DNA of 64,000 bases, from contig OZ024740.1 in assembly GCA_964016885.1 (NCBI GenBank), forward strand, positions 295,368,001 to 295,432,000. The letters run 5' to 3'. Made by a program: the position numbers and the translations under genes. The notes below the pieces were generated by a model that saw only the letters and a program-made list of their open reading frames with translations, was not told the origin of the DNA and did no database searches. The stretch's first letter is position 1. Every line of letters begins with the position of its first letter. Shown here in pieces: positions 46,255-64,000 of this stretch. The DNA is from Eledone cirrhosa. Its lineage: Eukaryota.

Positions 46255-46352
46255 AGAGGTTAACTTTGCCTTTCATCCTTACGGGGTCGATAAAATAAAG
46301 TACCAGTAATGTACTGGGTAATTGCTGGCCTTGTGCCTAATGTAGAAACAAT
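46255..46352 (+). mobile_element. SINE 3' fragment
   Basis: GAGGTTAACTTTGCCTTTCATCCTTACGGGGTCGATAAAATAAAGTACCAGT...GCTGGCCTTGTGCC matches other copies in the window. Confidence 0.85.
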
Positions 46353-46490
46353 TATTTTCATATAAAGTAGCTTGATTAAAGAAAATAAAAGAATATGTAA
46401 AAAAAATAAATGGTGGTATTTCTTTTCGATTGTAAGGGTTTAAAATATACGAAGTTGTTGAAATATTAGGGTTTGTATAGAAATATTTAA

Positions 46491-46614
46491 GCCGTCAAAT
46501 TGGCAGATGGTTAGAACATCTGATAGAATGCTATGCGGTATTGTTTGCGACACTTTACTCTCTGAATTCAAATTCCGCCTTTCATCCATTTAAGGTCGAT
46601 AAAAGAGTACTAGT
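46491..46614 (+). mobile_element. Diverged tRNA-derived SINE
   Basis: A-box-like TTGGCAGATGGTTAGAAC, B-box-like GAATTCAAATTCC, then CCTTTCATCC..GGTCGATAAAA core. Confidence 0.7.
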
Positions 46615-46671
46615 CTATATCTCTTTCTCACTTCTTTCCTCACACTCTTCTCTCATTCTATCCTTCTCTGT

Positions 46672-46780
46672 AAGAAATCCACTGGAGAGGAGATGGGCTC
46701 CGCCAGTATTTAAAATGCCCTAGAAACGCCGTATGTCGATATGGTGACCCTTCGACTCCCGTGGGAGTTACGGGTCCATA
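46672..46780 (+). mobile_element. Short dispersed element, probable Penelope pLTR remnant; related copy inverted at 50765-50880
   Basis: GAGATGGGCTCCGCCAG..TTTAAAAT..GATATGG..terminal hairpin aligns by eye to the reverse complement of 50765-50880; degenerate CTGGAGA...GAAAC hammerhead-like core. Confidence 0.4.
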
Positions 46781-47843
46781 TATACATACATACAAATGCT
46801 CGCATTTTAATTATATTGAAGTTTATCTTGCTCATTTATATATTGCACATTTCTGCTGCTTGTATATTTAAATATGGAATAATAGGAAATTATGAACTAA
46901 ATATTCATATAAACATATTGGGGATATTTCATATGATGACGACAGCTCATACTGGGAGTATTTCATATAATGACCACAGCTCATATGGGTATTTTAGATT
47001 ATATACACAGCTCATTTTTGGGGTATTTCAAAGAGATCAATGTATTTACTATCTTACTATCTTAGTTCTAATAGCGAAATCAACACCTGAAGCCTGTATT
47101 GTATCTTCTTTTTTCCCTGACCAGAAGAATGTATAACCCCACCTTTCTCCTCAAGCAGTCCATAAGCAGGAACTCGAGTTTTACTTAGTGCTGTTATGTC
47201 TATGTTATACTCATTTAATATCTTTGACACAAGATCTGTTTATCTCACTAATGAGTCTGTGCTATTCTGAAGGTTTCGGACATTCCAAGAACCAAACTTT
47301 TATGTGATTTTTTTGTCTTTGTCTTTATTTGTGTTTCGACCGCATAGTGGATAACCAGTTAACCGCAGTAAGATGACAGGTCTTTACGGGCATGCAATTT
47401 TTAGGGCTTCCTTTCTCGTTCCCTCCCAATTAAGGGAAAACAGTGCATTGAATAAACAGACATGCTTTGTCACCCAGCAGAGTACACAAGCAGCTGAATT
47501 GCTACCATCTGCTGAGTCGTCAAACTCTGCAGCGCACCAGCTAAGGACTACTAGTAGTAGTATCTACTTGTCACTCCATCACTAGAGGACGTTTCGTTAA
47601 AAAAAAACCAACACACACACGCCCCCCCCCCCCACACACACATATGTATATATACATACACATATACGCAACAATTACAGATCCACTTTCGATACCCGAC
47701 CCTAAATCTTGGATCACAGTATACCTTGTTCTCAATACTGATGTCCATCCTTGACTATTATATATAAATGTATACACAGCAAAAAAAAAAAAATGCATTA
47801 AAATAAATTCTTTTTATATGCACTATTTAAATTATGTAAACAG

Positions 47844-47861
47844 TTTTTGGGACACCCTGTA
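47844..47861 (-). mobile_element. Orphan Tc1/mariner-type terminal inverted repeat + TA
   Basis: Reverse complement TA-CAGGGTGTCCCAAAAA, a typical Tc1/mariner terminus; no partner TIR found. Confidence 0.5.
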
Positions 47862-47931
47862 TATATATATATAAAATAAAATAAATAAGTCAAATAAATA
47901 AGTCAAATGTTTAAAATTTGGCTTCGTTTAT

Positions 47932-47978
47932 TACTGCTCGGTGACAGTCATCTTTGGCTGTGACCTCTTCAGGCAGTA
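47932..47978 (-). ncRNA. Decayed hammerhead ribozyme (stem III and cleavage site deleted)
   Basis: Minus strand TACTGC-CTGAAGA-GGTCACAGCC..GACTGTCACC-GA-GCAGTA, overlapping a downstream AATAAA; 6-bp stem I and imperfect stem II. Confidence 0.5.
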
Positions 47979-48499
47979 CGAATTGGTGTGGTAGAGATTA
48001 TAATCCTTCTTAGGTCATCAAGACAGCTATGATGAAGCGAGGAAAGTAACCTAAAAATAGAAACCCAAATGCTTGGAGAAGAGTGGACTCCACTAAAGTC
48101 ACAAAAGTGCTTTGAGGTGGTTTTAAACTGGGATTTCAATTAAGTTTACAAGCCAAATAAACAGAAATGAGCTTTGAACACATATAACTGGAACAAATAC
48201 CTCAAAGAATCTCAGCCAACTTTCTGAGAATTTCAACAATCCATTACCATGGATTGATACTTTATTGAAATAATGAATAACCAATTTGAGCTCAGTGAAG
48301 AAATATAGAAACAATAGTGCAAAGTATTTGCCCCCTAGTATAATGACTGGTAACTCACTGCTTTAATCTTGTTAAGTTTATATTCTAGATTCTAGCTGTA
48401 CAGTTATGATTAGTCTTTAAGCTGATGTCATGGGAATCAGAAGTTATCTCTCAATACTTATCAGAATCTGTCTAATCTTATTTTGATGGTAAAGGCTAT

Positions 48500-49130
48500 T
48501 TACATGAAGTGACAAATATCCATGTAATTAACTCGATTTTAGCTCTTGTATATAAGGAGTTGTTAGTTGTATGCAAAGCTCTTTAATATGGAATGGGCAC
48601 TCTGACACATAGGAAATTATCTCAATGCTCTTAATGGTATTATATCTAATAATGAGATAGTTTATGTGTACGCACTTATGTGATCTTGAGTATGTGTATG
48701 TAAGGAAGGATGAAGGAGGTAAATGCATTATAGGCTTATTACATAATCCTCAAAACGATAGCTCAGCTAGATAAAAACAATTCATTGATACAAAAAAAAA
48801 CTTCTAAAGTATTGCTTAAGTATTGTTGTTTCTTTAGATAGTTATCTGAATAATGACAAGCAGGTTTTGTGACACCTTCCTGCATTAGAGACAGCCATTG
48901 TTGTTGTTGAGGTGTTTAACTCCGTCAATATTCCGATATGCCCAGTTCCTGGTTGGGTTGTTATTTCTCTAAGGAACTGGAATCATATGAATTCGAACAA
49001 ACGAATTTCAGCGTCAAAGGACACCCTCTCCTCCCATTGGTCAGTTGTAAGAACATTCCTCAGTCAAAAGTCTATAGAAATTCTTTCTGAGAGTGAGGCA
49101 ATCTGTAGTGATTGTTTTTGTTATTGTTAA
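48500..49130 (-). pseudogene. Possible highly decayed LINE AP-endonuclease remnant
   Basis: Weak minus-strand motif resemblance only (PMGGEGV; TYTY...HINYLII...VSECP vs APE GGGV; TY..IDY..SDHxP); multiple stops. Confidence 0.25.
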
Positions 49131-49706
49131 GTACAGCTGACCTCCTCCCTTATGTTGGTAGTGGTGTTGGTCAGCTTAAGTCCGACTGCTGCTATTTTTA
49201 GAAGAATTTGTGTGTGTGTGTAGGCATCTATCCTGCCAACATTTCTCGTGGTGGTGGGGGTTTGTGCCAAGCAGATGAAGAAGTAAGATAAAGTAAAATG
49301 GGGAAATAAAAGGCAATAAAATGAAGAAAATAAAAAATTAAAAAATGAAGAGAAAAATAAAATGAAATGAAAAGGTAAAAAACTAAAAAATAAAAGAATA
49401 AAATAAAAAAGTAAAATAAAATAAAATAAGAAAAATAAATAAACAAAAAAATGATAAAATAGTAAAAGGAATAAGATAATAAAAGAATAAAATAAGATAA
49501 TCAAGTAAAATTCGTGTGTGTTATAACCAATCTCAAAGTTTGAAAGATTTGGAAGATATTGACCGAAGTAGATAGGCTGTGTCAGAATCAATCTTTACAC
49601 TTTCATGGTGTATTTTACATTACTCCGGAGTAACCAAACCAACCTGCGCACTTCGTCGAGTGCTCCATTCTGCATACTAGGTGTCGGTAAACAACAAACA
49701 TATACT

Positions 49707-49780
<74 letters not shown>

Positions 49781-50428
49781 TGTACACAAGCATACACACA
49801 CACACACACATATTTATATGTGCGTGGTTTTGTATACCTATGGTAAGGTTTTGCGTATGCTTGTGTATGTACGTATCTGTTTGTGTGTATGTATTTATTT
49901 GTTTCTATTACTTCTGTATTGTATTTATTTACTTTGTTCTTAACTCTGTAGCGGAGATTCATTTGGTCTCCTAGTTAGAATTTTAGTCTTCGTTTTTTCG
50001 TTCATTGCCAGAGAACGTCTCTATGCACCACCTTAAAGAACATTAGTCTACGACCTCTTTTATACCATAAACGTGGTTCTGTCTTTGCGCGTAATTGTTT
50101 TTCACCGCTCCTATTAATGACGTATTATTCGTTTTTTCCCGTTCTTTGCCAGCGAACGTTTCCACGAACCAAAGTATCGTCTTCCTGTCTTCCTCCGGTT
50201 GCAACGTTTTTTTTAAATATCCAGTTCTGCGTTTACAGATTGACTTTATTAGTTTCAGAAGATCCCGTTAAGGGTGAAAGCAGCGATTCTTTGCTTAAAC
50301 TTTAATCTGTTATTTTAATAAATATTTGCTCTACGGTTCTTATATATTTGATATATATTTTCCTTATCGAGCCCTCTTTGGATTTTAGTCTTCAATTTTA
50401 TTATTATTACTATACATATATGTATATA

Positions 50429-50501
<73 letters not shown>

Positions 50502-50925
50502 TATATATATTCAGGGTGTGTGTATGCGTGCGTGTGTGTATGTGTGTGTCTGTGTGTGTGTGCATTCACAGTTCTACAAGAGAAGACATTTTCATAATGG
50601 TGATGATAATGATGATGATGATAATAAAAAAAAACATCATTATCATGAAGTATAATGATCATCATTGTCATCGTTATTGACAACGACAACGTCATCATCG
50701 TCGTCCACATTGTGGGCCCCGTTATTATATTCGTCATCGTCATTACCATTTACATCGTCATCATCATGTATGGTCCTGTCACTCATGAGGGAATCGTAGG
50801 ACCGCCATATTGATATACAGTATTTTAAAACCTGGCGAAGCCCATCTCTCCAGTTTCTAAATACAGCAGATTTCTTCCAGGGAAACACAGAGAGAGTGAA
50901 AGAATGGAAGTGAGAAAGACTCGGC

Positions 50926-51080
50926 GCTAGTATTTGATTGACACTTTTTTTTTATCAACCTCGAATGGATAAAAGGCAAAGTTGACCTCGGTGCAATTTG
51001 AACTCAGAGAGCAGAGAGTCGAAACAAATACCACGAAGCAATCTATCCGACGTTCTAACGACTCTTCCAATTCGTCGCCT
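50926..51080 (-). mobile_element. Diverged tRNA-derived SINE
   Basis: AAAGGCAAAGTTGACCTCGG..ATTTGAACTCAGA core plus A-box-like end on the minus strand. Confidence 0.75.
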
Positions 51081-51096
51081 ATTATCTCTCTATATA

Positions 51097-51284
51097 TTTG
51101 TTTCTACTTTAGGCACAAGGCCAGCAATTACCCAGTACATTACTGGTACTTTATTTTATCGACCCCGTAAGGATGAAAGGCAAAGTTAACCTCGGCGGGA
51201 TTTGAACTCAGACTGTAAAGGGGCGTAACTATGCTAGAAAGCATGGCGTCCAACCCTCTACCGATACTGCCAATTCACCGCCCC
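51097..51284 (-). mobile_element. tRNA-derived SINE, near full length
   Basis: Minus strand starts GGGCGGTGAATTGGCAGTATCGGTAGAG (A box), then GAGTTCAAATCCC (B box), conserved core and tail. Confidence 0.85.
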
Positions 51285-51649
51285 TATATATATATTAGCA
51301 AGAAAGATATCTAATAAAGAAAGATATATATTAGCAGATGTCTGTGTATTTGTATGTCTGTGCACATAGCCAATGAGGGAATGAGAGAGAGAACAGGCTA
51401 AAAGAGAGGAGGTGTTACAAAGGGTGAGAGAGAATATGTGTGAGCGAGAGAGAATATGTGTGAGCGAGAGAAACACAGAATGAGAAAAAGACAGAGAGAA
51501 AAGAGAAAGAAACACAGAGTTTCTATAGAAGTTGAAAGAGAGGGGGATAGAGGGAGAGAGAAAGAGAGAGAGACGCTGTATGTTTGATACTGTATGTATG
51601 TTCTATAGCAGAAGTTGAAAGAAAGCCGGCACAAAAGGAGGGGGATAGC

Positions 51650-51683
<34 letters not shown>

Positions 51684-52168
51684 GAGAGAGGCTGTGTTTG
51701 ATACTGTATGTGTCAGTGTAGATACATGTATGTGTGTGTGATGTGTCTGTAAATAAGATGGGAAGGAAAGCCATAACTATTAACATGTGTGCGTGTGTAT
51801 GTGTACGTACACGCGTGTGTGCGCGTGTGTGGCGTTCCACAGAAGTAAAATCTGTCAACATGAGTGAGTGTGTGCGTGTGTGTGAAAGCGTGCGAGTGTG
51901 CGTTTGTGTGCGTGTGTCTGTGTGTGTGTATGTGTGTGCGCGTGTGTGCGTGCGTGCGGCGTTCCACAATCTCCATTTATTTCAATCACTCTGGTGAAGA
52001 TATTCGCGTAACTTTCACTCAGTTTTTCGTTTAATCCCCATTTTAATTTTCAAAATAGTTTCCGATAAAAATGTTCTCACTCTCTACAAGAGGAGACGTG
52101 TAAATGTAGATGATCAGTATTCTACAGTGAAGCAAAGACGGGTACAGGTAGCCAGAGCAAGGTCACTA

Positions 52169-53113
52169 GAGACTCCTGTACAACGACAGCAAAGATATGA
52201 AAATGACCGGAGGAGAGCTGCTGCACGCAGTGCCAATGAGTAACAAGAGGCAAAGGAAAAACGGTTAGAACAATTACGTTAACAAAATGCAATCCGCCGG
52301 AACCAAGAGTAAAAAAGGAAAGATAAAAACGTTTAAAGGATGCAAGACAAAGACAAGCTGCCAGAGTTGCCAATGAGACAATAGGTCAGCGAGAGATTAG
52401 ACAAAGAAAAAAACAGGAGCAAACAGTTGCTGCATGACTTCGCCAATCAGAGGAAAGACGTAAGCGTCTTGATCAAGATAGGGTGAATACGTTTGACAAA
52501 AGAATTGTACCTTTCAAGGGTGGTGGTGGTGGGGGGGGGGGGGTGGAGAAGATCAGCATTCAGCTATGATCCAAAACATGATTATTCTATAGAGAAATTG
52601 ATTGATATTGGAGCAATATCAAAAGAGTGCAGTTTTTGTAAAGGAAGAAATGGGAAAGAGAAACCACTATTGTGTTGTGGAGGAGAAACGGTTGTTCTAC
52701 CGACGTTTGGTACACCCTCAAATACTTTGAAGCCATTGTTTTGGGGAAACACATCAAGGAGCATGCACTTCTTGAAAAACATTTTGAATTATAATTCTGC
52801 TTTCCAAATGACCTCCTTTGGTAGCAATATTATAAGAGAAGGGAACATGAAGCCAGTTCAAGGTCAAGTATACCATCATATTGGAACTTTGTTGCCAACT
52901 GGAGGCAAAAATCCTCTGTTCTTGCGGCTATATTTTATGGCAAATTACAAGGAGCAGGCTTTGCAACGGTCATTTAACCTTCCAAATTTGAAAGAAGAGT
53001 TAATCTTTGATCTGCAAAATACATGCAAACAATAGCTATATCAGAAGCTTCAAGTATGCATTAGAATCTGCACCACCCACTGAATACAAGATAGTTATTG
53101 ATGCAGACAAAAA
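52169..53113 (+). pseudogene. Helitron RepHel N-terminal region (23-aa STPR-like repeats, CxxC..CC zinc region, YNSAFQMTSFG / QGQVYHxIG)
   Basis: ORF 52493-53035 has CSFC...CCGG, FLKNILNYNSAFQMTSFG and VQGQVYHHIGTLLP, characteristic of Helitron RepHel; stops and frameshifts present. Confidence 0.85.
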
Positions 53114-54245
53114 GCATCGTCTGGCATTGCTGCAGCCTTCACTCAGGATGACGAACAGCTCATTCTACTTTTAAATTACCGCTAAACCTGGTCACAAATG
53201 ACATTCCAATTTGTAACATCAACAAAGGTTCAGGTTCAGCAGAAGTGTTGCGCCAATGCCATTTGATCATTTGGATGAATGTACCATGTCACATAGAAGT
53301 GCAATGGAAGCTCTTATGACATAAGAGGCATAAGAGGCAACAATAAATCTATGGGATGAGTTACATTAGTTTTATCAGGAGACTTCAGACAGACATAACC
53401 AGTCATTCCGAGAGGAACAAGAGCTGATGAAATAAAAGCATGCATTAAATCTTCGCACCTATGGAATAAAGTACAGAAATTCTCTTTCAATACTAACATG
53501 CGAGTTTTATTACATGGCGACCAATGTGCAGAACAGTTTTCAACCCGGCTCCTTCAATTGATGGGAATGATGATATCAATTTGGCTCATATTGCTATCAT
53601 GGTGAACCCCCCAGCTGAATTGAAGAACAGGGTATTTCCAGACTTACGTAATAATTATGATTCACAAATGGTTGTGTGAAAGGGCAATTCTTGCTCCCCC
53701 CAAAAATGCGACAGTAGCAAGGACAGTCATTAAGGAGTACAAATCTGTTGATTCAGTCCTTGATGAAAATTAAGCTGTCCACTACCCAACATAGTTCATT
53801 AATTCTCTTGAACCACCTGGAACTCCTCCACGTAAACTTTTCTGAAGGTAGCAGTCCCAATAATGCTTCTAAGAAATTTAGATCCTCCTAAATTATGCAA
53901 TGGGACAAGGTTAATTGTGAAGACATATCACCTAATGTGATAGAAGCTACCATCGTCACTGGATGTGATTCTGGGGAAGAGGTTTTCAATCCAAAAATTC
54001 CCATCAAACAAACAGACATGCGATTCGAGTTCAAACGAACACAATTCCCAGTGCGACTTTGCTTCGCAATGCCTATTAATAAAGCTCAAGGTCAGACTTT
54101 GAAATTTACTGGCTTGCACTTAATTGAACTTTGCTTTTCTCATGGTCAACTTTATGTTGGTTGCTCGAGGTGGGTAGTTTACAAGACTTATTTGTCTATG
54201 CTCCAAACCAGAAAACAAAAAATGTTGTTTACCCAGAAGCTCTTA
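53114..54245 (+). pseudogene. Helitron Pif1-family helicase, decayed
   Basis: Motifs across frames: ASSGIAA, RTAHSTFKLPL, DECTMSH, LSGDFRQ, LLRNLDPPKLCNGTRL, QFPVRLCFAMPINKAQGQTL, FSHGQLYVGCSR. Confidence 0.9.
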
Positions 54246-55031
54246 CGCAATTTCCTTCAACATATGTGATAGAATTTATCGCCCTTCATAAAAGTGGTTA
54301 ATTTTGTATTTTCGTTTTTTTTTATTGTTATTATTATTTTTTTTTTTGTATTATAAATTCAGAATTGATTTCATCATGTATCCCAATTGAAGAATAAATT
54401 GAATTTAGACAAACAACTTTCTATATAACATATTTTGCTTTTTTCTTCTAATATATAAGGAACAATTTCATTCCCGGGAAACGCCGGGTGCCTCTGCTAG
54501 TCAATAATATAATAACAGCAATTGTAGTTTCAAGCACCTAATACTTATTTACCCTTGGTACTTTCCAGTGTAAATTAAGCTTAGGTCAGACCCACTATAT
54601 TTTTAGTACTATATTTCAGATTATCCCATTTTCTTAATAGGGCCCCTCGTGTAGGCTTCTTTCTTTGTTTTACTACTTTCAGTTAGGTTTCCTTTCTTTC
54701 TTTCATTCTTTCTGTCTTTCTTTTTTTCTTTCTTTCTTTCGTTCTTTCTTTCTTTCTATTTCTTTCTCCCTTTTGTTCTTACATTAAAAAAAGAATAATT
54801 AATCTGTGGGATGATTCAAATTTCTGTCAGTACACAATGCTTCCTCTGTGATGGCTGTTATGTTGGTGAGTATATAGAAAGATAGGGTGAAAGAGAAAGA
54901 CATACAGCCAAACAGAAAGAAAGGAGTGGATGGGGAAGACGAAAATAAAAGAGGGAAAGGGTGGTGGAGTTGTTCCATCATGTTTAGTGTGTAGATGAGG
55001 GAAGACGAAAGTTATTATTATTATGGCGGTA

Positions 55032-55590
55032 GGGCGGTGGATTGGCAGTATCGGTAGAAGGTCGGACGCCATGCTTTGACACATTGAGTTATGGCCCTTT
55101 ATGTTCTGAGTTCAAATACCACCGAGGTTAGCTTTGCCTTTCATCCTTACGAGGTCGATAAAATAAAGTACCAGTAATGCACTGGGGTAATTGATGGTCT
55201 TGTGCTGAAAGTAGAAACAATTATTATATGGTGGATTGGCAGTATCGGTAGAGCGTCGGACACCCTGCTTCGCGACATAGAGTTACGGCTCTTTACGTTC
55301 TGATTCCAAATACCGCCGAGGTTAGCTTTGCCTTATCATTCTTTACGAGGTCGATAAAATAAAGTACCAGTAATGCACTGAGGTCGATTTAATCGACTTT
55401 CCCCTCTCCCAAATTTGCTGGCCTTGTGCCTATAGGAGAAATCATCTTGCAGCAAAGAGTTACGGCCATTTATGGTCTGAGTTTAAATCCCGCCGAGGTT
55501 AACTTTGCCTTTCATCCTTACGGGGACGATAAAATAAAGTACCAGTAATACACTAGAATAATTGCTGGCCTTGTGCCAAAAGTCGAAAAA
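55032..55590 (+). mobile_element. Three head-to-tail SINE copies (~55032-55222, 55229-55445, 55456-55590)
   Basis: A box GGTGGATTGGCAGTATCGGTAGA in copies 1-2, B-box-like GTTCAAATACC variants and the CTTTGCCTTTCATCC..CGATAAAATAAAGTACCAGT core in all three. Confidence 0.9.
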
Positions 55591-55639
55591 ATTATTATTA
55601 TATATATAGGGAGAGTGGGAGTGAGAGGGAGACGGAGAA

Positions 55640-55670
<31 letters not shown>

Positions 55671-57067
55671 AGGAGAGCATAATTGTGATAAAGAAAATTA
55701 AGTCAGTAAAATAGGTTAAGTACAAAATACTAAGTGACTTTTTAGAGATTCGAAATCCAGATCTTAGACAAATAATATGCAGTTGCAAATATTGTTGCTG
55801 TCACTATTTAGTTCCAGCTCTAGCCTGATTGGTGAAACCGATGATCAAAGGCGTTTCAGCTGTGACCATCCTATATATCCTTTTTTAATACTGTAGGTGT
55901 GACTTAGGCGGAGGTTTGGCTGATGTTTCTATCATGCAAAGCGCTCACATTGAGACTTTTGATGGTTTAAATGTCGTTGTGTTCTCGTTGCTGTTGTTTA
56001 ATCCCAGGTCAAAGGCATTTCGGATGTGACAATCCCATCTTTTAAAAAAATCTATAGCCTTAGTTTATGTGTTCTTCTCTTTGCATTGTATAATTTGAGA
56101 GCATTGTATAATTTGAGAGAGATTTGTCTGCTATTGCCAGCAGGTTTAGCAAATGTGTTAGGTCCACAAATAAAAGTTAGAGAAGGGTCATGGGTAAATA
56201 ATCGAATAGAATGCTTCGTTGATTAGATCTCAGCTAGAGGGGGATAACAATACGAACATCGTCCCAACAGCAACAGTAACGACAGTATAGGGTCAATAAT
56301 TGTTGTTTGGTTCCATTTTAAGTTTAAAACTTTTTAGTATTTACATTACTTTGTATATTCTACTATATTTTCACGGTAAAGACTTTACCTAACATAATTA
56401 TCTCAATATAATATCGGATCTATGAGATTTTGATATTGTTTATTTTGAGAAAAATACCTTAACATCAGTATGAGCGGCAGGCTACAGCTGGTTTGAACAG
56501 AAGAAGTGAGAACATTCTGGCTGGATATGGCCGGTTTAAATGCTAAAGGGTTAACAAAATTGACCTTTATCCCTTTCCTCTGTAAACTGTGTATAATGTT
56601 TATCTTTCTTCTTATTAAGCCTTCTGTATTTCCATTACATGTTGTAGTGAGTAATTCGAAATTGATCAAATGACCCGTGACTCTGAAGAGTTTTACAGAT
56701 TTCTCTACGTCTCTTCCCTTCACAAACGCATCTCATAACAACATTACGGCGGCACAATTATTTCACCTCAACTAGTCCCGCTGTCTTTAACATTGCACAA
56801 AAAAAAAAACAGAAACAGATCCCATAAAATTCAAAATGCCTTTGGAAAAATTCCCCCAAGAAATCCCGGATAAACCTCCTACACCCGCATTTGTCTCCGT
56901 TAAACAATAACTCTCTACTTGAGTAGGCCATGGTATCCAAATTCTGATTTGAAAGATCTTCACCAAGTGGTGCTATTAAGTTAGACATGGCCTGGGCTAA
57001 TATTGGCCAAAACCTATCAAAGTTATATATATATGTATGTATATATATATATATATATATATTAATA

Positions 57068-57355
57068 TAGTCTGACAGTCTTAAACCCTAAAACTCCCTC
57101 CACCTTACTCACTTCCCTCTTCCCCTTCTCTTCCTACCTCCTTCTTTATCTTTTATCTAGTGTATAAAATATTTTCATATCATTCTAATACAAAGGTCTG
57201 ATGACATGGTGTGTTGGCTTACAGTGTACTTTCGGTTTTTGATAATATTTGTGTATTATTCAAGTAGCGAGGTATAGGTAACTCATAGACTATAGAAACA
57301 ATTGTTACCTAATAAATTCTATATACCCGCATTTCCATTTCGTAAATTTTTTCTC
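57068..57355 (+). repeat. 5' pseudo-LTR (288 bp)
   Basis: Direct repeat of 60085-60372 (offset 3017); two substitutions seen by eye. Confidence 0.95.
57194..57310 (+). ncRNA. Type I hammerhead ribozyme with long stem II and minimal palindromic stem III
   Basis: AGGT-CTGATGA-[~90-nt rod]-GAAA-CAATTG-TT-ACCT then AATAAA; predicted cleavage after GUU (57306). Confidence 0.8.
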
Positions 57356-57517
57356 CATATTTTCTCCGGATTTTAAAACACACTTTATTATACGTTGAGC
57401 AATCTCTGACGTCAGTTGACTACATCCAATGCAACTACTTAGTAACATTGGAATACAAATTAACTAATTCTTCACACTCCTTTACAGTCGAGCAACCTAT
57501 CAACCCGCGTCTTTGAA

Positions 57518-59800
57518 ATGGAAAAACATCATTGTGGTATGTCCTTAAAAAACATACCAATTCAGGGTAAAAAGGATTACATTCTTGGTATGATACAAAG
57601 GACCAACGAATTTATTCGGCGGATTAGATGGAAGGCCTTCCACTTCGATAGGAAAAGGATTACACAAACTTCGGACACCAACAACGAGAAGTTTGGTTTC
57701 AAATCCTACAAAAACCCACCCTCTAACCCTCTTTTGGATTCTTTCGAACAGGACTTAATGAAAATGATAACCGGAATCAAATTTACAAACGGAAGGAAAA
57801 ACGAACTGCAACGAGATATTAAAACTCTACTCAACAACCTAAGGAATACCAAAGGAATTATCATAAAGGCAGACAAAACTTCGAATCTATACACCCTGGA
57901 TGTAGAAACATATAACAATTTTATACGTAAGGAATTACATAGGAAGTACAAAAAAACAAACGCAACTACACTAACCAACATTAATAACGCAGCATGTGAT
58001 ATTGTTAGGAAACTGAAAATTGACGACAGAACGGTACCCCTATCCCCAGCTACACCGACTTTTAATCTGAAGGACCATAAGGATAACTTCGATACTAACC
58101 CTAAAATTAGATTAATATGTCCTTCAAAGTCCGATATAGGTAGGATTAGTAAGTACATATTAGATCGTATTATCCCCCAAGTTAAGGCTAAGGTAGATAT
58201 TAAATTATGGGGTAATACTCATCAGGCAATAAGATGGTTCAATAACATTAGGGACAAAAACAAATCTTCTTTTATTCAATTCGATATAGATGAATACTAT
58301 TCCTCTATTTCACCTGAAACCCTGCATAAGGCCCTCTCTTTCGCTAAGACTAACTCGGACCTCACAAACGAAGAAATTAATATTATACTTGAAGCTAGAC
58401 GCACAGTAGTGCACTTTGAAAATAGTTATTGGGTCCGCAGGGATAGACCCTCAGAATTCGACATTACGATGGGTTCTAATGATTCGGCGGAGGTCACGGA
58501 TTTGGTTGGGATCTATATAGCCCATAGACTCCAGAGCGAATTTACGGACCTCCACGGCGGAATATACCGCGACGATACACTTCTATTAGTCAAGAATATG
58601 AACAAACAAAACCTAGAAAGGCGACGTAAAAACATTAGGAAACTTTTCTTAGAACTAGGGCTTAATATTACCTTTGAACACAATCTAAAGGTGGTCAACT
58701 TCTTGGATGTCACCTTCAACCTTAATAACGGTAATATAGAGCCATTTCACAAACTTAATGAAAATCTTAAGTACGTTAATGTAAAATCGAACCATCCTCA
58801 TTCCATTATTAAATCTATCCCTAAAAATATATCCATAAGGATCTCCCGACTGTCGTCTAATTTGCAGACCTTCAACGAGCATGCAGAATATTATAATGAC
58901 GCACTTAGAAAAGCTGGTTACTGCGAGAAAATTGAATATCTAGACGATAACCACATAAGTACTATGAATAAAACACATCTAAGTCGAACTAGTATTGCAC
59001 CACACACACACATCAATAGGCATACTAACAGGTGCAAACCAGCAAATAGAGTCAGACGTAGAGAGTACATATGGTATAACCCCGTGTACAATTCTTCTAT
59101 TAGCACTAAGATTATCTCACAATTCTATACACTAATCAATAAACACTTTACAACTTCACATAAATACTATAAAATCTTTAACTCGTGCACCATTAGACTC
59201 TCATACTCCACTGCACCTAACATAGAACAACTAATTAGAAAACTCAACTCAGCAATACTGAATAAGTACATCCCTAATGACTCAGCGCACCAGCATAGCA
59301 ACATACAACGCACTAACACGCAACCACAACCCCACCAAACTATCCAGGATTCTACTGCAAAACATAAAAATAGTTGTAACTGCACCAAACCAGGTACGTG
59401 CCCACTGAATAACCAGTGCCTAGCACGCAATATTGTCTACCGGTGTACAATAAATTCCGGGACCAACAAATGGTATTACGTCGGATGTACCGCAACTTCT
59501 TTCAAGGCTCGCCTATACCAACATCGATTTTCGATCAGGCACGAGAAAATGCGCTCCGTAACAACCCTCGCTGATAAAGCCTGGCAGCTTCGGAGGAACA
59601 ATCAAGCGTTCTCCCTTGATTGGCAAATTATTGCAGCTGCGCCTGCATATCAGCAAAATCATCGATTCTGCAAGTTATGCAATTTAGAGATATACTGCAT
59701 TTTAACGTCGGTAAACAAACTTTTGAACAGCAAAATTGAACGTTCTCTATATTGTAACCATCGTTTGAAAACGACTTTTTCTTTTTTTAAATGCATATAA
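57518..59800 (+). CDS. Penelope-like reverse transcriptase with C-terminal GIY-YIG endonuclease (760 aa)
   Basis: IKADKT, QFDIDEYYSSI, TMGSNDSAEV, IYRDD, NFLDVTF, SNHP; Cys linker CNCx5CPLx3C; IVYRC..YYVGCT..FKARLYQH; C-terminal CKLC and CNH. Confidence 0.95.
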   Translation: MEKHHCGMSLKNIPIQGKKDYILGMIQRTNEFIRRIRWKAFHFDRKRITQTSDTNNEKFGFKSYKNPPSNPLLDSFEQDLMKMITGIKFTNGRKNELQRDIKTLLNNLRNTKGIIIKADKTSNLYTLDVETYNNFIRKELHRKYKKTNATTLTNINNAACDIVRKLKIDDRTVPLSPATPTFNLKDHKDNFDTNPKIRLICPSKSDIGRISKYILDRIIPQVKAKVDIKLWGNTHQAIRWFNNIRDKNKSSFIQFDIDEYYSSISPETLHKALSFAKTNSDLTNEEINIILEARRTVVHFENSYWVRRDRPSEFDITMGSNDSAEVTDLVGIYIAHRLQSEFTDLHGGIYRDDTLLLVKNMNKQNLERRRKNIRKLFLELGLNITFEHNLKVVNFLDVTFNLNNGNIEPFHKLNENLKYVNVKSNHPHSIIKSIPKNISIRISRLSSNLQTFNEHAEYYNDALRKAGYCEKIEYLDDNHISTMNKTHLSRTSIAPHTHINRHTNRCKPANRVRRREYIWYNPVYNSSISTKIISQFYTLINKHFTTSHKYYKIFNSCTIRLSYSTAPNIEQLIRKLNSAILNKYIPNDSAHQHSNIQRTNTQPQPHQTIQDSTAKHKNSCNCTKPGTCPLNNQCLARNIVYRCTINSGTNKWYYVGCTATSFKARLYQHRFSIRHEKMRSVTTLADKAWQLRRNNQAFSLDWQIIAAAPAYQQNHRFCKLCNLEIYCILTSVNKLLNSKIERSLYCNHRLKTTFSFFKCI

Positions 59801-60084
59801 TGTTACCTTTTTACACCAGCGTTTGCAAATTTCTGTCTTATATGTTTATACACTAGATATGGCTTTCTATAATAATAGTACTAAACACTGTTTTTCTGGA
59901 CCCCTTTAGAAATAACCTGCTACTATAATAGCCCTAATAACTTGTCTGTGACACTGTACTACTTTGACCCCTCTAACTAAATTTTGTCCGAACAACACCA
60001 CTAGAAGAATCTACTTCCCAGCCAACCTTAGCACGCCTCATTAAGCTAACTGCTGCCAAAACATTCTCTCTTCACAATCTCTAC

Positions 60085-60368
60085 TAGTCTGACAGTCTTA
60101 AACCCTAAGACTCCCTCCACCTTACTCACTTCCCTCTTCCCCTTCTCTTCCTACCTCCTTCTTTATCTTTTATCTAGTGTATAAAATATTTTCATATCAT
60201 TCTAATACAAAGGTCTGATGACATGGTGTGTTGGCTTACAGTGTACTTTCGGTTTTTGATAATATTTGTGTATTATTCAAGTAGCGAGGTATAGGTAACT
60301 CATACACTATAGAAACAATTGTTACCTAATAAATTCTATATACCCGCATTTCCATTTCGTAAATTTTT

Positions 60369-60372
<4 letters not shown>
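60085..60372 (+). repeat. 3' pseudo-LTR (288 bp)
   Basis: Direct repeat of 57068-57355. Confidence 0.95.
60211..60327 (+). ncRNA. Hammerhead ribozyme, 3' pLTR copy
   Basis: Same as 57194-57310; the CATACACTATA allele gives an uninterrupted 9-bp basal stem II. Confidence 0.8.
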
Positions 60373-60401
<29 letters not shown>

Positions 60402-60444
60402 TTATATATATATATATATGTATGTATCTGTGTGTGTGTGTGTG

Positions 60445-60572
60445 TATATCTAAAATTAATTAAATTAAATTAAATTAAGGGAGTCATGTCCGAGACATGC
60501 GCCATATCCACCGTAGAATAAGATCAAAGATTCCATGACTCCCTTAATTTAATTTAATAAATTTTAGATATA
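60445..60572. repeat. Inverted repeat, ~40-bp arms with ~45-bp spacer
   Basis: TATATCTAAAATT..AATTAAATTAAGGGAGTCATG / CATGACTCCCTTAATTTAATT..AATTTTAGATATA. Confidence 0.9.
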
Positions 60573-60753
60573 TAAACGGCTCCTTAATTGTAGAGCTAAA
60601 TCAGTTGAAAGGACTCGGCTCCTATTTATAGCTGTCAATCACTCTATTCATGCCAATGGGATGACGCTAGCATGTTGTTAGTAGTTTTAGAATTGCAACA
60701 CGTGCGACGGGTCACTCGCAGATTTGCATTTGATGTGTAAACACAGATAGTTA

Positions 60754-60851
60754 AATCTTCTCCCTTGCTGAAGATCCATGATTTGACTACTGTGACTTTA
60801 CGGATTAATGGTGAAATATATTTCTTTAATGAAATATATACAAGGAGGATT
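60754..60851 (+). ncRNA. Type I hammerhead ribozyme with full 9-bp stem III
   Basis: CTTG-CTGAAGA-T CCAT..ATGG T-GAA-ATATATTTC[TTTAAT]GAAATATAT-A-CAAG; stem I extends via AATCTTC/GAGGATT; cleavage after AUA (60840). Confidence 0.75.
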
Positions 60852-61142
60852 AATCATTTTTTAAAAAGGTAATATTTGAAGCTCTAGTTAAACTTTAATT
60901 AGTTACCTACCTAGCTATGTGTGATTACACACTTTACAAATTATCCCCTGTGATTGTTTCCTGTGTTTATTTCTAGTTGATTATGTTTTGCGATGACCTC
61001 CCCTTCCCGCTTGGTGACGGTGTGAGATTTCTCTTTGTGAGACTGCTGGAATTTCAAATTTGGCGGTCACTCTAACACTGACGGGTACCATCGCTGAATG
61101 TTAATATCGATAGGTTTTTTTTTATATCGATATTGTTGGGCA

Positions 61143-61262
61143 TCCACTGATGATTTATAAGTGCCCACCTGCATATATTCCTATAGACTATGTGTAGGCT
61201 TCTACATAACATGGACATTATTTTCTCAACTTGTAGAAAACTTATAATGAAAATCGTTTGGA
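61143..61262 (+). ncRNA. Type I hammerhead ribozyme with multibranched stem II
   Basis: TCCA-CTGATGA-T TTATAAGT..ACTTATAA T-GAAA-ATCG-TT-TGGA; the insert has two hairpins (CCTGCATAT/ATGTGTAGG, TTCTACA/TGTAGAA). Confidence 0.7.
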
Positions 61263-61435
61263 AAGAGGGATGTATTTAATTATGTCTCATATAAAATAAT
61301 ACAACTGGCTATCCGCAAAATACGTATAGTTAGCACCCCAAACGTATAATTGGTATTATACTAAGGTATATCCTAATGTTTGTTGAGTGAGACGGAAGTC
61401 GGTCGGAGTATTGCTTAAAGCTTTCTCTGTTAATG

Positions 61436-61485
<50 letters not shown>

Positions 61486-61689
61486 CGACGATGAATTAGT
61501 TTTGCGAGGTTTTTTATATGAAATCGTGTGTCGAAACAAATATTGAGGACCGAGTAAGTTAGATTACCGATATAAAAGACACAGAAGCGAGAAACGAAAA
61601 CCAACCAAACAGTGAGTGTGTTCTGTTATTAATTCTGGCAATATTACACAAATATATATATATATATATATTAAATATATTAAGAAAGT

Positions 61690-61788
61690 TAAAAACCCTA
61701 CCGCGAAGCCTAGCGGATTTTGGGTTGTATTCACCAAACATTTGGCGATTACAAGCCGAAGCCGCTAGGCGTCGCGGTCGGGATTTTA
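61690..61788. other. GC-rich ~49-bp-arm imperfect hairpin
   Basis: TAAAAACCCTACCGCGAAGCCTAGCGG..TTGTATTCACCAAA-CA-TTTGGCGATTACAA..CCGCTAGGCGTCGCGGTCGGGATTTTA. Confidence 0.85.
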
Positions 61789-62302
61789 CGTTCCATTATA
61801 CCCAATCAGCTTCTTCCCTTACAGAGAGTAATATCCGGATTTGTGGCCTCCCCGGTCTCAACGCCACCGATTAGATGAAATATATATAAACTTCAGAGTT
61901 ACAAAACTCACTATTCAGCCTAAATAAAATGAATATTAAAAATCTACTTCGGTATTCATACTTTCTCAAAGCCGTCAATATATATACACACGCACGTACA
62001 CATACCCACGTACGGTCTTTATTATAAATATGTCGAGATGACCTATAATTAAATTATTCTATAGTGACTTAATCTTACGTTATTCGTGTACTGTTTGGTG
62101 CTGATAATGTTTCCGGGGTACATCTAACTAACGGATATTTTGTAATTAATTAGGTTAAAAATGTTTTAAGTTATAGTTGAGTGTTAAAACATTCTGTCTG
62201 TTTGCTAAAATATAAGAATACTGGGTTATACATTTATGAGTGTTCTACAAACATATATATATAAACTTGCGTGTGTATATGTATGTACGTATATCTATAT
62301 AT

Positions 62303-62778
62303 GTCAGGTCGCTCTCGAGTGCTACTGGTAACATGTAAGCCAGTGCAACCTGTCTTGTGGTCGTGTCATCGGCGACTAAACTGGCAACCCCACCAAACTT
62401 TCTTGGTGAGGAGGGTGATATTTGGTCACCCTGCTGGATGAAATACAAGACCCAGTAAAGGGCGAAGGAACTCAGCAGAGTCAACGGCCATCCAAATAGT
62501 ACTTTTTTTTTACCTGGGAGTGAAAGGCCCCCAGTTGTCGTCACAACACCTTTCTAAGAGAGGGAAACTCTGAAAAAAAAAAAACCTGCGGCTTTGGAAG
62601 CATCCGATGATGTTGACAAGTTCTCCTTTTCGGGTAGTGTTTTCGATGTTCAGAGAGTAGGATTGGTCGAGTGTGCAAGGCCTTTCCCCACTTAAAAAAC
62701 CTTCAAAGCACAGGCATTGCTTGTTCAGGCTCTGTTACAAGCGATTGCAATACTCTTAGCAGAGTATGCAGCCATCAT
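62303..62778 (+). mobile_element. Probable RTE-clade LINE 5'-UTR-derived fragment with degenerate HDV-like ribozyme
   Basis: GC-richer island between AT microsatellites; GCCAGT/ACTGGC (P2), GG-TCGT..GCGA-CTAA (P1.1/P4/J4-2); family assignment from recalled resemblance only. Confidence 0.4.
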
Positions 62779-63198
62779 ATCTATATAGATATATGAGAAC
62801 ATATGTGAGTATATAAAAGTAACAATACAGGATTAGTTTTAATCCCACATATACGGGTAACATTTATTCAATTATGTTTTATGCATCTAAGTTATGTTCG
62901 TGATAGAATGGTGAAGTAAAAATTAATATTCTGGTGAATATTTTGCAAATTACAAACTTGTGGCTTTCGGACAAATAATAGCTCCCGATAATCTCTTTTG
63001 AGTGAAACTAAGGAGTCTTCCGTATATATATATAATAAATGCTCGGATTTATTCCTTAGAATATATATATATATATATATAAACGTTAGAATATGTGTAA
63101 TAAGGCCAAGACAATGCAGATATGGACATAGAAAAAAGAATGCAATAGTGAAAGATATTGATGAGAATTCGTCTTTCACCTTGAATTTATTTAAATGT

Positions 63199-63233
63199 CC
63201 TTAATTTTCGAGATAATATCTCTTCTTCGGAGG
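63199..63233 (-). ncRNA. Minimal hammerhead-like motif (U4C core, extra A)
   Basis: Minus strand CCT-CCGAAGA-A-GAGAT ATT ATCTC-GAAA-AT-TA-AGG, then AATAAA; stem I only 3 bp. Confidence 0.5.
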
Positions 63234-63615
63234 GAAGTAAAAGTCTCAGACCAGCGTCTAAATTTCCAATGAAGCCATGCTGACCGGAAATAGTATAGAG
63301 TTCTAACTTTAATATCAAAGAATTAAAATTAGGTGGGTAAAGAGTAGTCTCCCTTTAAGAGGGGTTTGTTTATGTTTTTGTTGTGTTTTTTTAAATTTTA
63401 TATGCGTGCCTGTATATGTGTGTGGGAGAAAGCATGAAGGTGTAGGTATGTGGGTGTGTGTGTGTGAGTGTGGGAAGATAGGTCTAATCGTAAAAGTGGG
63501 GGGTAGGTGTTATCTGGTGTTAGAACTGGTTTTGTGTGTGTATGTGTGAGAGAGAATAAGTGGAGGTGTGCGCGTGCGTGTGTGTGGGGTGTGTAAAGTG
63601 GGGCTAGAGGCCCTA

Positions 63616-64000
63616 TCAGGTTATAAATTGGGTGTTGAGCTCTAGTCTATTATTGATTGGTGGATGTGTTCTATCTATAATGAGTGCTTCCTTGATTCTA
63701 AGATTGCCGAGGTTTCTTTCCTTAGTTTCTATCCTAACTGTTATGTTTTTATCAGTGTTTTTGCATTTAACTAGGTGTTTCTTAAATGAGGAAGCGTTAG
63801 TATTGAGGTGTTCTTTTATTCTTATGTGGAGTGGTCTGGTGGTGCTACCTACGTAGAAGTTGTTGCATTTGTCACACTCTAGTCTGTAAACTACGTAAGC
63901 CTGGTGGCATAGGTCTGTGTCGTTGATGGGGCAGTTGGCTAGTCTGCAGCAGTTGTCATGTCTGGTGGAGTGTCTCTTAGCTAGCCGTCCACGCAAAGAA
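63616..64000 (-). CDS. GIY-YIG endonuclease domain of a Penelope-like element (5'-partial)
   Basis: VVYRLECDKCNNFYVGSTTRPLHIRIKEH..KKH (CCHH), RIKEALII..PPIN; preceded by a Cys-rich linker. Confidence 0.9.
   Translation of the reverse strand, partial: SLRGRLAKRHSTRHDNCCRLANCPINDTDLCHQAYVVYRLECDKCNNFYVGSTTRPLHIRIKEHLNTNASSFKKHLVKCKNTDKNITVRIETKERNLGNLRIKEALIIDRTHPPINNRLELNTQFIT

Follow-up and report, generated by a model that had tools for sequence, protein, structure and literature searches.

Is the non-coding kilobase at positions 60443–61435 one mobile element that carries two ribozymes, or two elements that came to lie side by side? The segment (993 nt; positions throughout follow the numbering of the window, the whole 64,000-nt stretch analyzed) contains two different hammerhead motifs, HHR1 and HHR2, on the same strand. 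The original prediction read it as a single ~1-kb non-autonomous retroelement from which double cleavage would release a circularizing 418-nt RNA. A two-ribozyme element would be new, whereas stacked Penelope-type insertions are a known outcome of microsatellite targeting. From sequence comparison, the kilobase most likely consists of two different Penelope-derived repeats, families A and B, that were stacked by chance in a (TA)n hotspot (Table 1). We give a probability of roughly 60% to the full account, in which this stack is combined with A as a protein-free unit copied in trans, B as a truncated end of a Penelope-like element (PLE), and HHR1 as a ribozyme that cuts as a monomer; the length of the A unit, the order of insertion and the mobilizer are points that we infer.

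Table 1. Features in and around the kilobase segment (window positions)
Feature	Positions	Strand	Basis
Full-length Hydra-type Penelope-like element, outside the module	57068..60372	+	99% direct repeat; unit 3017 nt
Uninterrupted 778-codon frame, RT and C-terminal GIY-YIG	57464..59800	+	ORF, motifs, alignment
Third type I hammerhead, in neighbor pLTR, unrelated to HHR1/HHR2	60211..60327, also at 57198	+	Descriptor
Microsatellite (TC)n(TA)n(TG)n, likely shared insertion target	60373..60448	.	Sequence; (TA)n preference of Hydra elements
Probable family A 3' end, inverted (hairpin left arm and loop)	60449..60535	-	Opposite-strand joints in other copies
Putative last ~35 nt of upstream A unit (right arm) and TA junction into next unit	60534..60576	+	Contig joints
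Family A body, ORF-less	60577..60972	+	Overlapping contigs of other copies spanning 60534 to 60972
HHR1, type I hammerhead fold	60756..60849	+	Descriptor and folding
Family B	60973..61435	+	No likeness to A or neighbor; differing upstream sequence in other copies
HHR2, type I hammerhead fold	61143..61262	+	Descriptor and folding
(TA)n tract closing family B at its 3' side	61436..61484	.	Read from sequence

Layout of the segment and the neighboring element

Several parts of the initial description hold. The segment is bounded by the two TA-containing tracts of Table 1, and it lacks an ORF: the longest stop-free frame in 60443–61435 has 69 codons and the longest Met-started frame 48. The inverted repeat with arms of about 40 bp is also present (60445–60488 and 60534–60572; 39 matched bases and 5 gap positions), and its hairpin is strong (z = −8.2; 0 of 200 shuffles as strong). 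Its reading as a terminal repeat fared less well, as this is more likely an inverted 3' end of A.

The PLE that lies next to the segment appears intact and young. Its 288-nt pLTRs (57068–57355 and 60085–60372) are 99% identical, and its protein contains the motifs RWK, DKT, a CxCX5C linker, CxxC and CxH that define the (TA)n-targeting Hydra clade in Craig et al. (2021, PMC8557442). We assign the element to this clade on these motifs, the pLTR hammerhead and the (TA)n flank rather than on an RT tree; its unit length is at the upper edge of the 'generally <3 kb' given there for Hydra PLEs. The pLTR hammerhead has C·A at 10.1/11.1, a long helix II with a 90-nt insert, a palindromic CAATTG loop 3 and a GUU site with a predicted cut after 60323. 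For the protein, 199 relatives were found at E ≤ 1e-20 (best 38% identity) and none in the viral contig collection; the sole Pfam match to the ORF was below the cut-off. The ORF was aligned with 29 of the 120 homologues listed, and 77 metagenome and 18 genome-collection loci were fetched as related loci. Loci L078–L095, from bacterial genome records of marine samples, hold animal-type Penelope elements, probably through host contamination of the assemblies.

The original prediction had proposed mobilization by a Penelope RT like the adjacent one. The clade is right, but the neighbor shares no local sequence similarity with either family and so is not established as the mobilizer.

Two hammerhead motifs

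Both of the non-homologous hammerhead cores proposed at 60768 and 61147, with their stems I and II and their cut sites, were recovered by descriptor on the same strand. Each has the features of a type I hammerhead, with CUGANGA and GAAA boxes and helices I–III around an NUH site. In HHR1, the boxes are CUGAAGA (60768–60774) and GAAA (60813–60816), and the predicted cut follows an AUA site after 60840; helix I has 5 bp with a distal extension, helix II 4 bp (60776–60779/60808–60811) and helix III 8 bp (60817–60824/60831–60838). HHR2 combines CUGAUGA (61147–61153) and GAAA (61249–61252) with a GUU site, a predicted cut after 61258, a 4-bp helix I, an 8-bp helix II with a two-hairpin insert, and nothing in helix III past A15.1–U16.1. 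The canonical G10.1–C11.1 pair is missing from both motifs, with U·U in its place (60775/60812 and 61154/61248).

When the 993 nt were dinucleotide-shuffled 5000 times, 1 shuffle gave one such fold and 0 gave two on the same strand, a figure that is somewhat generous because the descriptor tolerates a 10.1/11.1 mismatch, a choice made after the sequence had been seen. The Rfam hammerhead models, which had been suggested as a check, matched neither motif: a search of the window at the gathering score found no hammerhead, nor did one of 56500–62500 at E ≤ 10, and the 20 weak Rfam matches are to hairpins or TA sequence, none to a hammerhead. The catalytic folds lie 4–6 kcal/mol above the local minimum, and that of HHR1 14.5 kcal/mol above the minimum in a 200-nt context. 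Searches with the exact HHR1 pattern returned 0 matches in the metagenome contig collection and 0 in the viral contig collection.

A relaxed descriptor found 83 motifs in 58 of the 95 related loci, 27 of them with U·U at 10.1/11.1, and by our own count U·U occurs in 14 of the 26 Hydra rows of File S2 (PMC8557442). It is therefore ordinary for Hydra-clade hammerheads to have U·U, a GUU site and a short helix III. The axolotl hammerhead HHR_Amex2, which cleaves weakly, likewise carries U·U where helix II begins. What sets HHR2 and the neighbor's motif apart is a core-box spacing of 90–95 nt, compared with ≤31 nt in 82 of the 83 related motifs. The hammerhead of the octopus family Hydra-1_oBim, as given in PMC8557442, is unlike HHR1, HHR2 and the neighbor's.

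Variation among other copies was read with the variants unphased. None of the 40 substitutions listed falls inside a core box, and no two-sided change is among them. Two wobble pairs of the HHR2 inner hairpin (61171, 61192) are Watson–Crick in other copies. Loop 3 of HHR2, the non-palindromic ATCG in the window copy, is palindromic elsewhere: 33 of 332 reads and 3 + 1 contigs have an additional CG behind 61252, and one contig from organism B has CAATTG. HHR2 is likely a usual hammerhead with a short helix III, which would need a partner copy.

Joints in other copies

Of nine sequencing datasets listed, six contain part of the segment, and no RNA dataset is recorded among them. Other copies were examined in a single mapping analysis, in which sequences from four datasets were placed on 60443–61435 at 80% likeness: X1 (organism A, 3267 contigs), X5 (organism B, 42 contigs), X6 (organism C, 2 contigs) and X7 (organism A, 6198 RAD reads). 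These numbers identify the segment as high-copy, and all of its parts are repeated in organisms A and B. The joints, substitutions, indels, loose ends and pieces that we describe are those among the matches listed rather than complete sets.

The most informative joints are at 60972. This position is joined on the opposite strand to 60535, 60532 or 60517 in one X1 contig and 43 X7 reads (7 + 18 + 18, from 2, 4 and 3 start places), with no between-letters listed. In these copies, 60972 is followed by the reverse complement of the hairpin loop and left arm (60535–60449). The left arm and loop are joined elsewhere to positions 60720, 60763, 60827, 60872 and 60901 within A, and another six opposite-strand joints lead to second ends within A, between 60727 and 60925. 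Opposite-strand joints to many internal positions match the inverted, 5'-truncated copies described for PLEs (PMC8557442, PMC3846280).

A second group of joints concerns the start of A. The joint 60497/60568 fits a junction of the 3' end with the start, and 42 contigs share both an A>T change at 60575 and a junction from TA to 60577. One contig fits 60534–60718 with 25 differing letters and has 8 unfitted letters ahead of 60534, the exact point at which a tandem copy is expected to stop matching. Five overlapping contigs, which represent other loci because each differs in 20–36 letters, run from the 3'-end junction toward HHR1 and are ORF-less.

At the right side of A, three contigs from organism B have loose ends behind 60972, and one listed record stops fitting at 60972. 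Organism C has unlike, non-A sequence ahead of 60998, and in organism A loose ends occur ahead of 61137 (4 contigs, 322 reads). A and B share no local similarity, and none of the 18 pieces listed bridges 60972/60973. These observations bear directly on the idea of a single ~1-kb element with two hammerheads that spreads as a unit. Its strengths are that both motifs are real and on the same strand, that the A/B junction lacks a TA run or visible target duplication, and that every part also recurs in organisms A and B; the depth of X7 reads drops from 255 (60961) to 37 (61030), so that up to 37 of 255 reads could bridge A and B, and an A+B junction may recur in some copies. Against this, other copies enter A's own end or TA-rich sequence from 60972, and the palindrome of HHR2 loop 3 is lost in the window copy. 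We therefore see only a slim chance for this reading. The proposal of one module is not supported at 60972, which continues in other copies into A's own 3' end and not into B, and two independent insertions, named in advance as an outcome that would overturn it, form the better-supported reading. What survives of the original reading is a Penelope-related, ribozyme-bearing, non-coding, non-autonomous element, which would be family A and not the whole kilobase.

The hairpin could also be considered in isolation, as an independent 128-bp MITE that entered the TA tract and was followed by two unrelated pLTR fragments. The hairpin is strong, its ends are TA-like, and its arms contain TTAA, GGG..CCC and TTAA. 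For a separate MITE, however, it is unexpected to find the left arm with its loop attached to many different non-TA positions within A and, reversed, to 60972, and we consider this alternative very unlikely.

Two measures were set aside. Contig depth was rejected as a guide to copy number or boundaries, since X1 depth swings 20-fold within A. RAD read ends were rejected as element boundaries, as five of the seven listed ends lie on AATT and one on CATG, likely restriction sites.

Family A as a proposed unit

Three groups of joints agree in pointing to a closed A unit, with the hairpin sequence as its 3' end in both orientations. Family A would accordingly be an ORF-less unit of ~486 nt, closed end to start, a length pieced together from short joints, as no single contig or read covers the whole unit or an A–A tandem. 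The end-to-start junction is seen in the window and in other copies, with no record spanning two units, and the tandem-read unit has no frame longer than 69 codons. Since 60972 continues elsewhere into the reverse complement of 60535–60449, the 'terminal inverted repeat' is likely a Penelope-type inversion that placed an inverted copy of the A 3' end beside a direct partial tandem. The 3' region is heterogeneous, as 510 X7 reads already diverge behind 60934. This counts against our preferred account, as does X1 depth, which on the supposed 3' end of A is ~22,000, compared with 155,000–222,000 at 60885–60952.

We propose that A opens with a start signal like that of Hydra elements, carries one hammerhead, and ends in a 3' stretch followed by TA and the next unit. 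Its transcription would yield an RNA longer than one unit, which a Hydra-clade RT/GIY-YIG protein would copy in trans. At this locus, insertion would have left the 3' 87 nt on the minus strand, with the other ~440 nt inverted, giving rise to the apparent terminal inverted repeat, and a truncated 3' UTR/pLTR of another Hydra-type element, B, would have been stacked in the same (TA)n hotspot. The direct/inverted geometry of the window copy resembles L1 twin priming; a literature search for twin priming with Penelope returned no paper on the subject among the titles found. The insertions with inverted pLTRs described for PLEs (Arkhipova et al., 2013, PMC3846280; PMC11167929) share with A an inverted 3' end beside a direct partial tandem and an AT-rich target. 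The window copy differs from them in that its direct part ends where the inverted part begins in the family A sequence, if no spacer is hidden.

The proposed start signal was compared with related elements. The motif GCTC[CT]-N4-22-TYGAGC[AT]CT was recovered ahead of related ORFs in 31 of 49 regions, and the second box alone in 33 sense regions, 1 antisense control and 2 in-ORF controls. This two-part motif, often present twice 55–83 nt apart, opens Hydra-type units just past the pLTR end (L001–L082; window positions 57392, 50364 and 63632) and is a candidate promoter or RT-recognition signal for the clade. In A, GCTCC boxes at 60579 and 60618 resemble it, although they are 39 nt apart rather than 55–83 and their second boxes are degenerate. 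With a matrix built from the second box, position 60632 ranks 10th of 35,372 positions in 46300–64000, where the top ranks go to a PLE-like remnant at 50364 and then to the neighbor's 5' region; it has the top score among positions with an upstream box. We regard the resemblance between the A start and the Hydra motif as moderate. A TATA plus TCAGTT initiator at the A start and in the neighbor was dropped as a candidate, since it was not evident by eye at eight related pLTR junctions.

The stack could be accepted and A still be something less than a unit, namely a piece of an autonomous Penelope-like element, either its 3' UTR/pLTR or a gutted derivative that arises rarely. X1 depth downstream of HHR1 is several-fold higher than at 60579–60612, as it would be with a 5'-truncated longer element; the neighbor's 3' non-coding region, at ~570 nt, could hold B and most of A; and minimal hammerheads in animal genomes are mostly dispersed motifs of truncated PLEs (PMC4209133). 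We nevertheless think it unlikely, given the five overlapping ORF-less contigs that lead from the 3'-end junction toward HHR1, the 42 contigs with the TA-to-60577 junction, and the start-type GCTCC boxes that open A.

HHR1 helix III and the internal duplication

Taking A as a trans-copied unit, its hammerhead deserves separate attention. Helix III of HHR1 is built from a repeated 10-mer with copies at 60812 and 60830. The region is retained in other copies: one contig from organism C spans 60773–60915 with 60783–60850 undeleted, and contigs from organism B cover 60817–60850 at flat depth. Such a helix is missing from the 83 related motifs, which have at most two pairs beyond 15.1–16.1, bar one doubtful antisense match inside an ORF; long helices III are known from fungal and protist elements (PMC4209133). 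Counting against our account, HHR1 has the pair U15.2–A16.2 at a position that is C–G in 81 of the 83.

Without the 10-mer repeat, HHR1 would be reduced to a minimal motif whose loop is the palindrome TATA. Minimal hammerheads with such a loop 3 are thought to act as dimers, and engineering a longer helix III gave some monomer cleavage (PMC4209133). Because the duplication provides in cis a helix III that otherwise forms in trans between the two halves of a dimer, we predict that HHR1 can cleave as a monomer, without a partner copy. Monomer activity is not in itself new, as many invertebrate retrozyme hammerheads cleave as monomers (PMC7761336); the point of interest is the visible route, a duplication, by which HHR1 would have reached it. 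One abundant A variant, with 741 loose ends behind 60753, seems to lack the HHR1 core.

The proposed 418-nt circle

The original prediction also held that cleavage at both ribozymes would release a 418-nt RNA able to circularize. This is poorly supported, as closure of 61258 onto 60841 sets the 5' strand of HHR2 against the 3' strand of HHR1, and helix I cannot form next to the core. The 418-nt RNA is also without the flanks 60443–60840 and 61259–61435. With no re-formed helix I and both flanks missing, such a circle would contain no ribozyme and could not regenerate the module, which further weakens the one-element model. The 418-nt circle folds at z = −2.8, a point for that model; the circle presumed for A folds equally well (z = −2.9), and 12 control stretches gave −2.2 to +2.0. 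We rejected circle folding as a discriminator because both circles are near −2.8.

Relation to known ribozyme-bearing elements

Hydra-clade PLEs, as presented in PMC8557442, resemble what is found here in several respects. They insert into (TA)n, carry a type I hammerhead close to their 3' end and leave inverted 5'-truncated copies; their hammerheads have GUU/GUA sites, often U·U where helix II begins, and a short helix III like that of HHR2. One octopus family, Hydra-1_Obim, is among those listed. Family A is unlike them in lacking an ORF and in the 8-bp helix III and U15.2–A16.2 of HHR1. The protein-free derivatives of Chlamys PLEs, such as MRC1 (PMC8557442), form pLTR-like partial tandems as A does; these are algal elements of an N-terminal-EN clade whose 3' end is like that of an autonomous partner, whereas for A no partner was found in the neighbor or the related loci. 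Comparison of A and B with the 95 distant related loci gave no likeness beyond one 24-nt match (E = 0.07).

Another parallel to A is found in the animal non-LTR retrozymes. As described by Cervera and de la Peña (2020, PMC7229834) and Li, Clavereau and Pollet (2026, 10.64898/2026.07.22.740005), these are, like A, non-coding, with one type I hammerhead, low GC, a head-to-tail junction (presumed in A) and a proposed PLE origin. The retrozyme unit sits between like ribozymes (PMC7229834), so that one ribozyme is repeated, unlike the two different ones of the module. A further differs in showing a partial tandem and not two full units. Its ~486 nt exceed the 150–450 bp of PMC7229834 and fall within the 51–972 bp of 10.64898/2026.07.22.740005. 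Tentatively, A could be a high-copy retrozyme of Hydra-clade origin: an element reduced by deletion to its 5' start motif and 3' end, whose hammerhead was freed from its partner by the 10-nt duplication and which forms ~486-nt circles; we view this as possible rather than probable. If true, A would be a natural record of the step from a dimer-dependent Penelope ribozyme to a monomer-active retrozyme ribozyme. According to 10.64898/2026.07.22.740005, the proposed descent of retrozymes from PLEs has not been examined outside vertebrates, and A offers an invertebrate, Hydra-type candidate for it. Two reports bear on cleavage: of nine frog retrozyme dimers predicted to be active, only one cleaved when assayed in vitro (10.64898/2026.07.22.740005), which counts against our account, and in the one PLE concerned hammerhead cleavage was protein-dependent and dispensable for insertion in vitro (Frangieh et al., 2024, PMC11167929). 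Our literature search found no description of family A, an octopus retrozyme or the start motif; the search for the motif sampled the literature in part and does not establish its absence from print.

Family B and probable stacked insertions

Family B likely represents what is left, after 5' truncation, of the 3' UTR/pLTR of another Hydra-type Penelope element, ending in (TA)n. We discounted the possibility that B had simply been inserted into an intact copy of A, because the 3' end of A was not found in 60973–64000.

Different same-strand hammerheads lie less than 1 kb apart in 4 of the 58 hammerhead-bearing related loci. A TA run separates the hammerheads in 9 of 9 close pairs from related loci; none is present at 60972/60973, which counts against our account. 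In two loci (L085, 5900–7450; L089, 1100–2650), three or four different hammerhead-bearing Penelope ends are stacked with TA runs between them, and the stacks include short palindromic insertions with a ribozyme on both strands.

Other features of the window

Immediately beyond a TA tract, a GC-rich imperfect hairpin of ~100 nt (61690–61788; −62.8 kcal/mol, z = −9.3) is possibly the end of another mobile element. Between TA tracts at 49950–50400 lies a likely remnant of another Penelope-like element, with a degenerate U·U hammerhead-like motif near 50265; the start motif finds its best match here, at 50364. A degenerate coding-like stretch at 52100–54250 may be a remnant of a Helitron Rep/helicase, which it resembles, and a SINE-like repeat with several copies (46256, 51094–51230 and 55030–55600) we take to be of an octopus type, suggesting an octopus as host. 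Positions 1–46250 consist mostly of three long satellite arrays with units of ~21–22, 21 and 27 nt, with assembly gaps.
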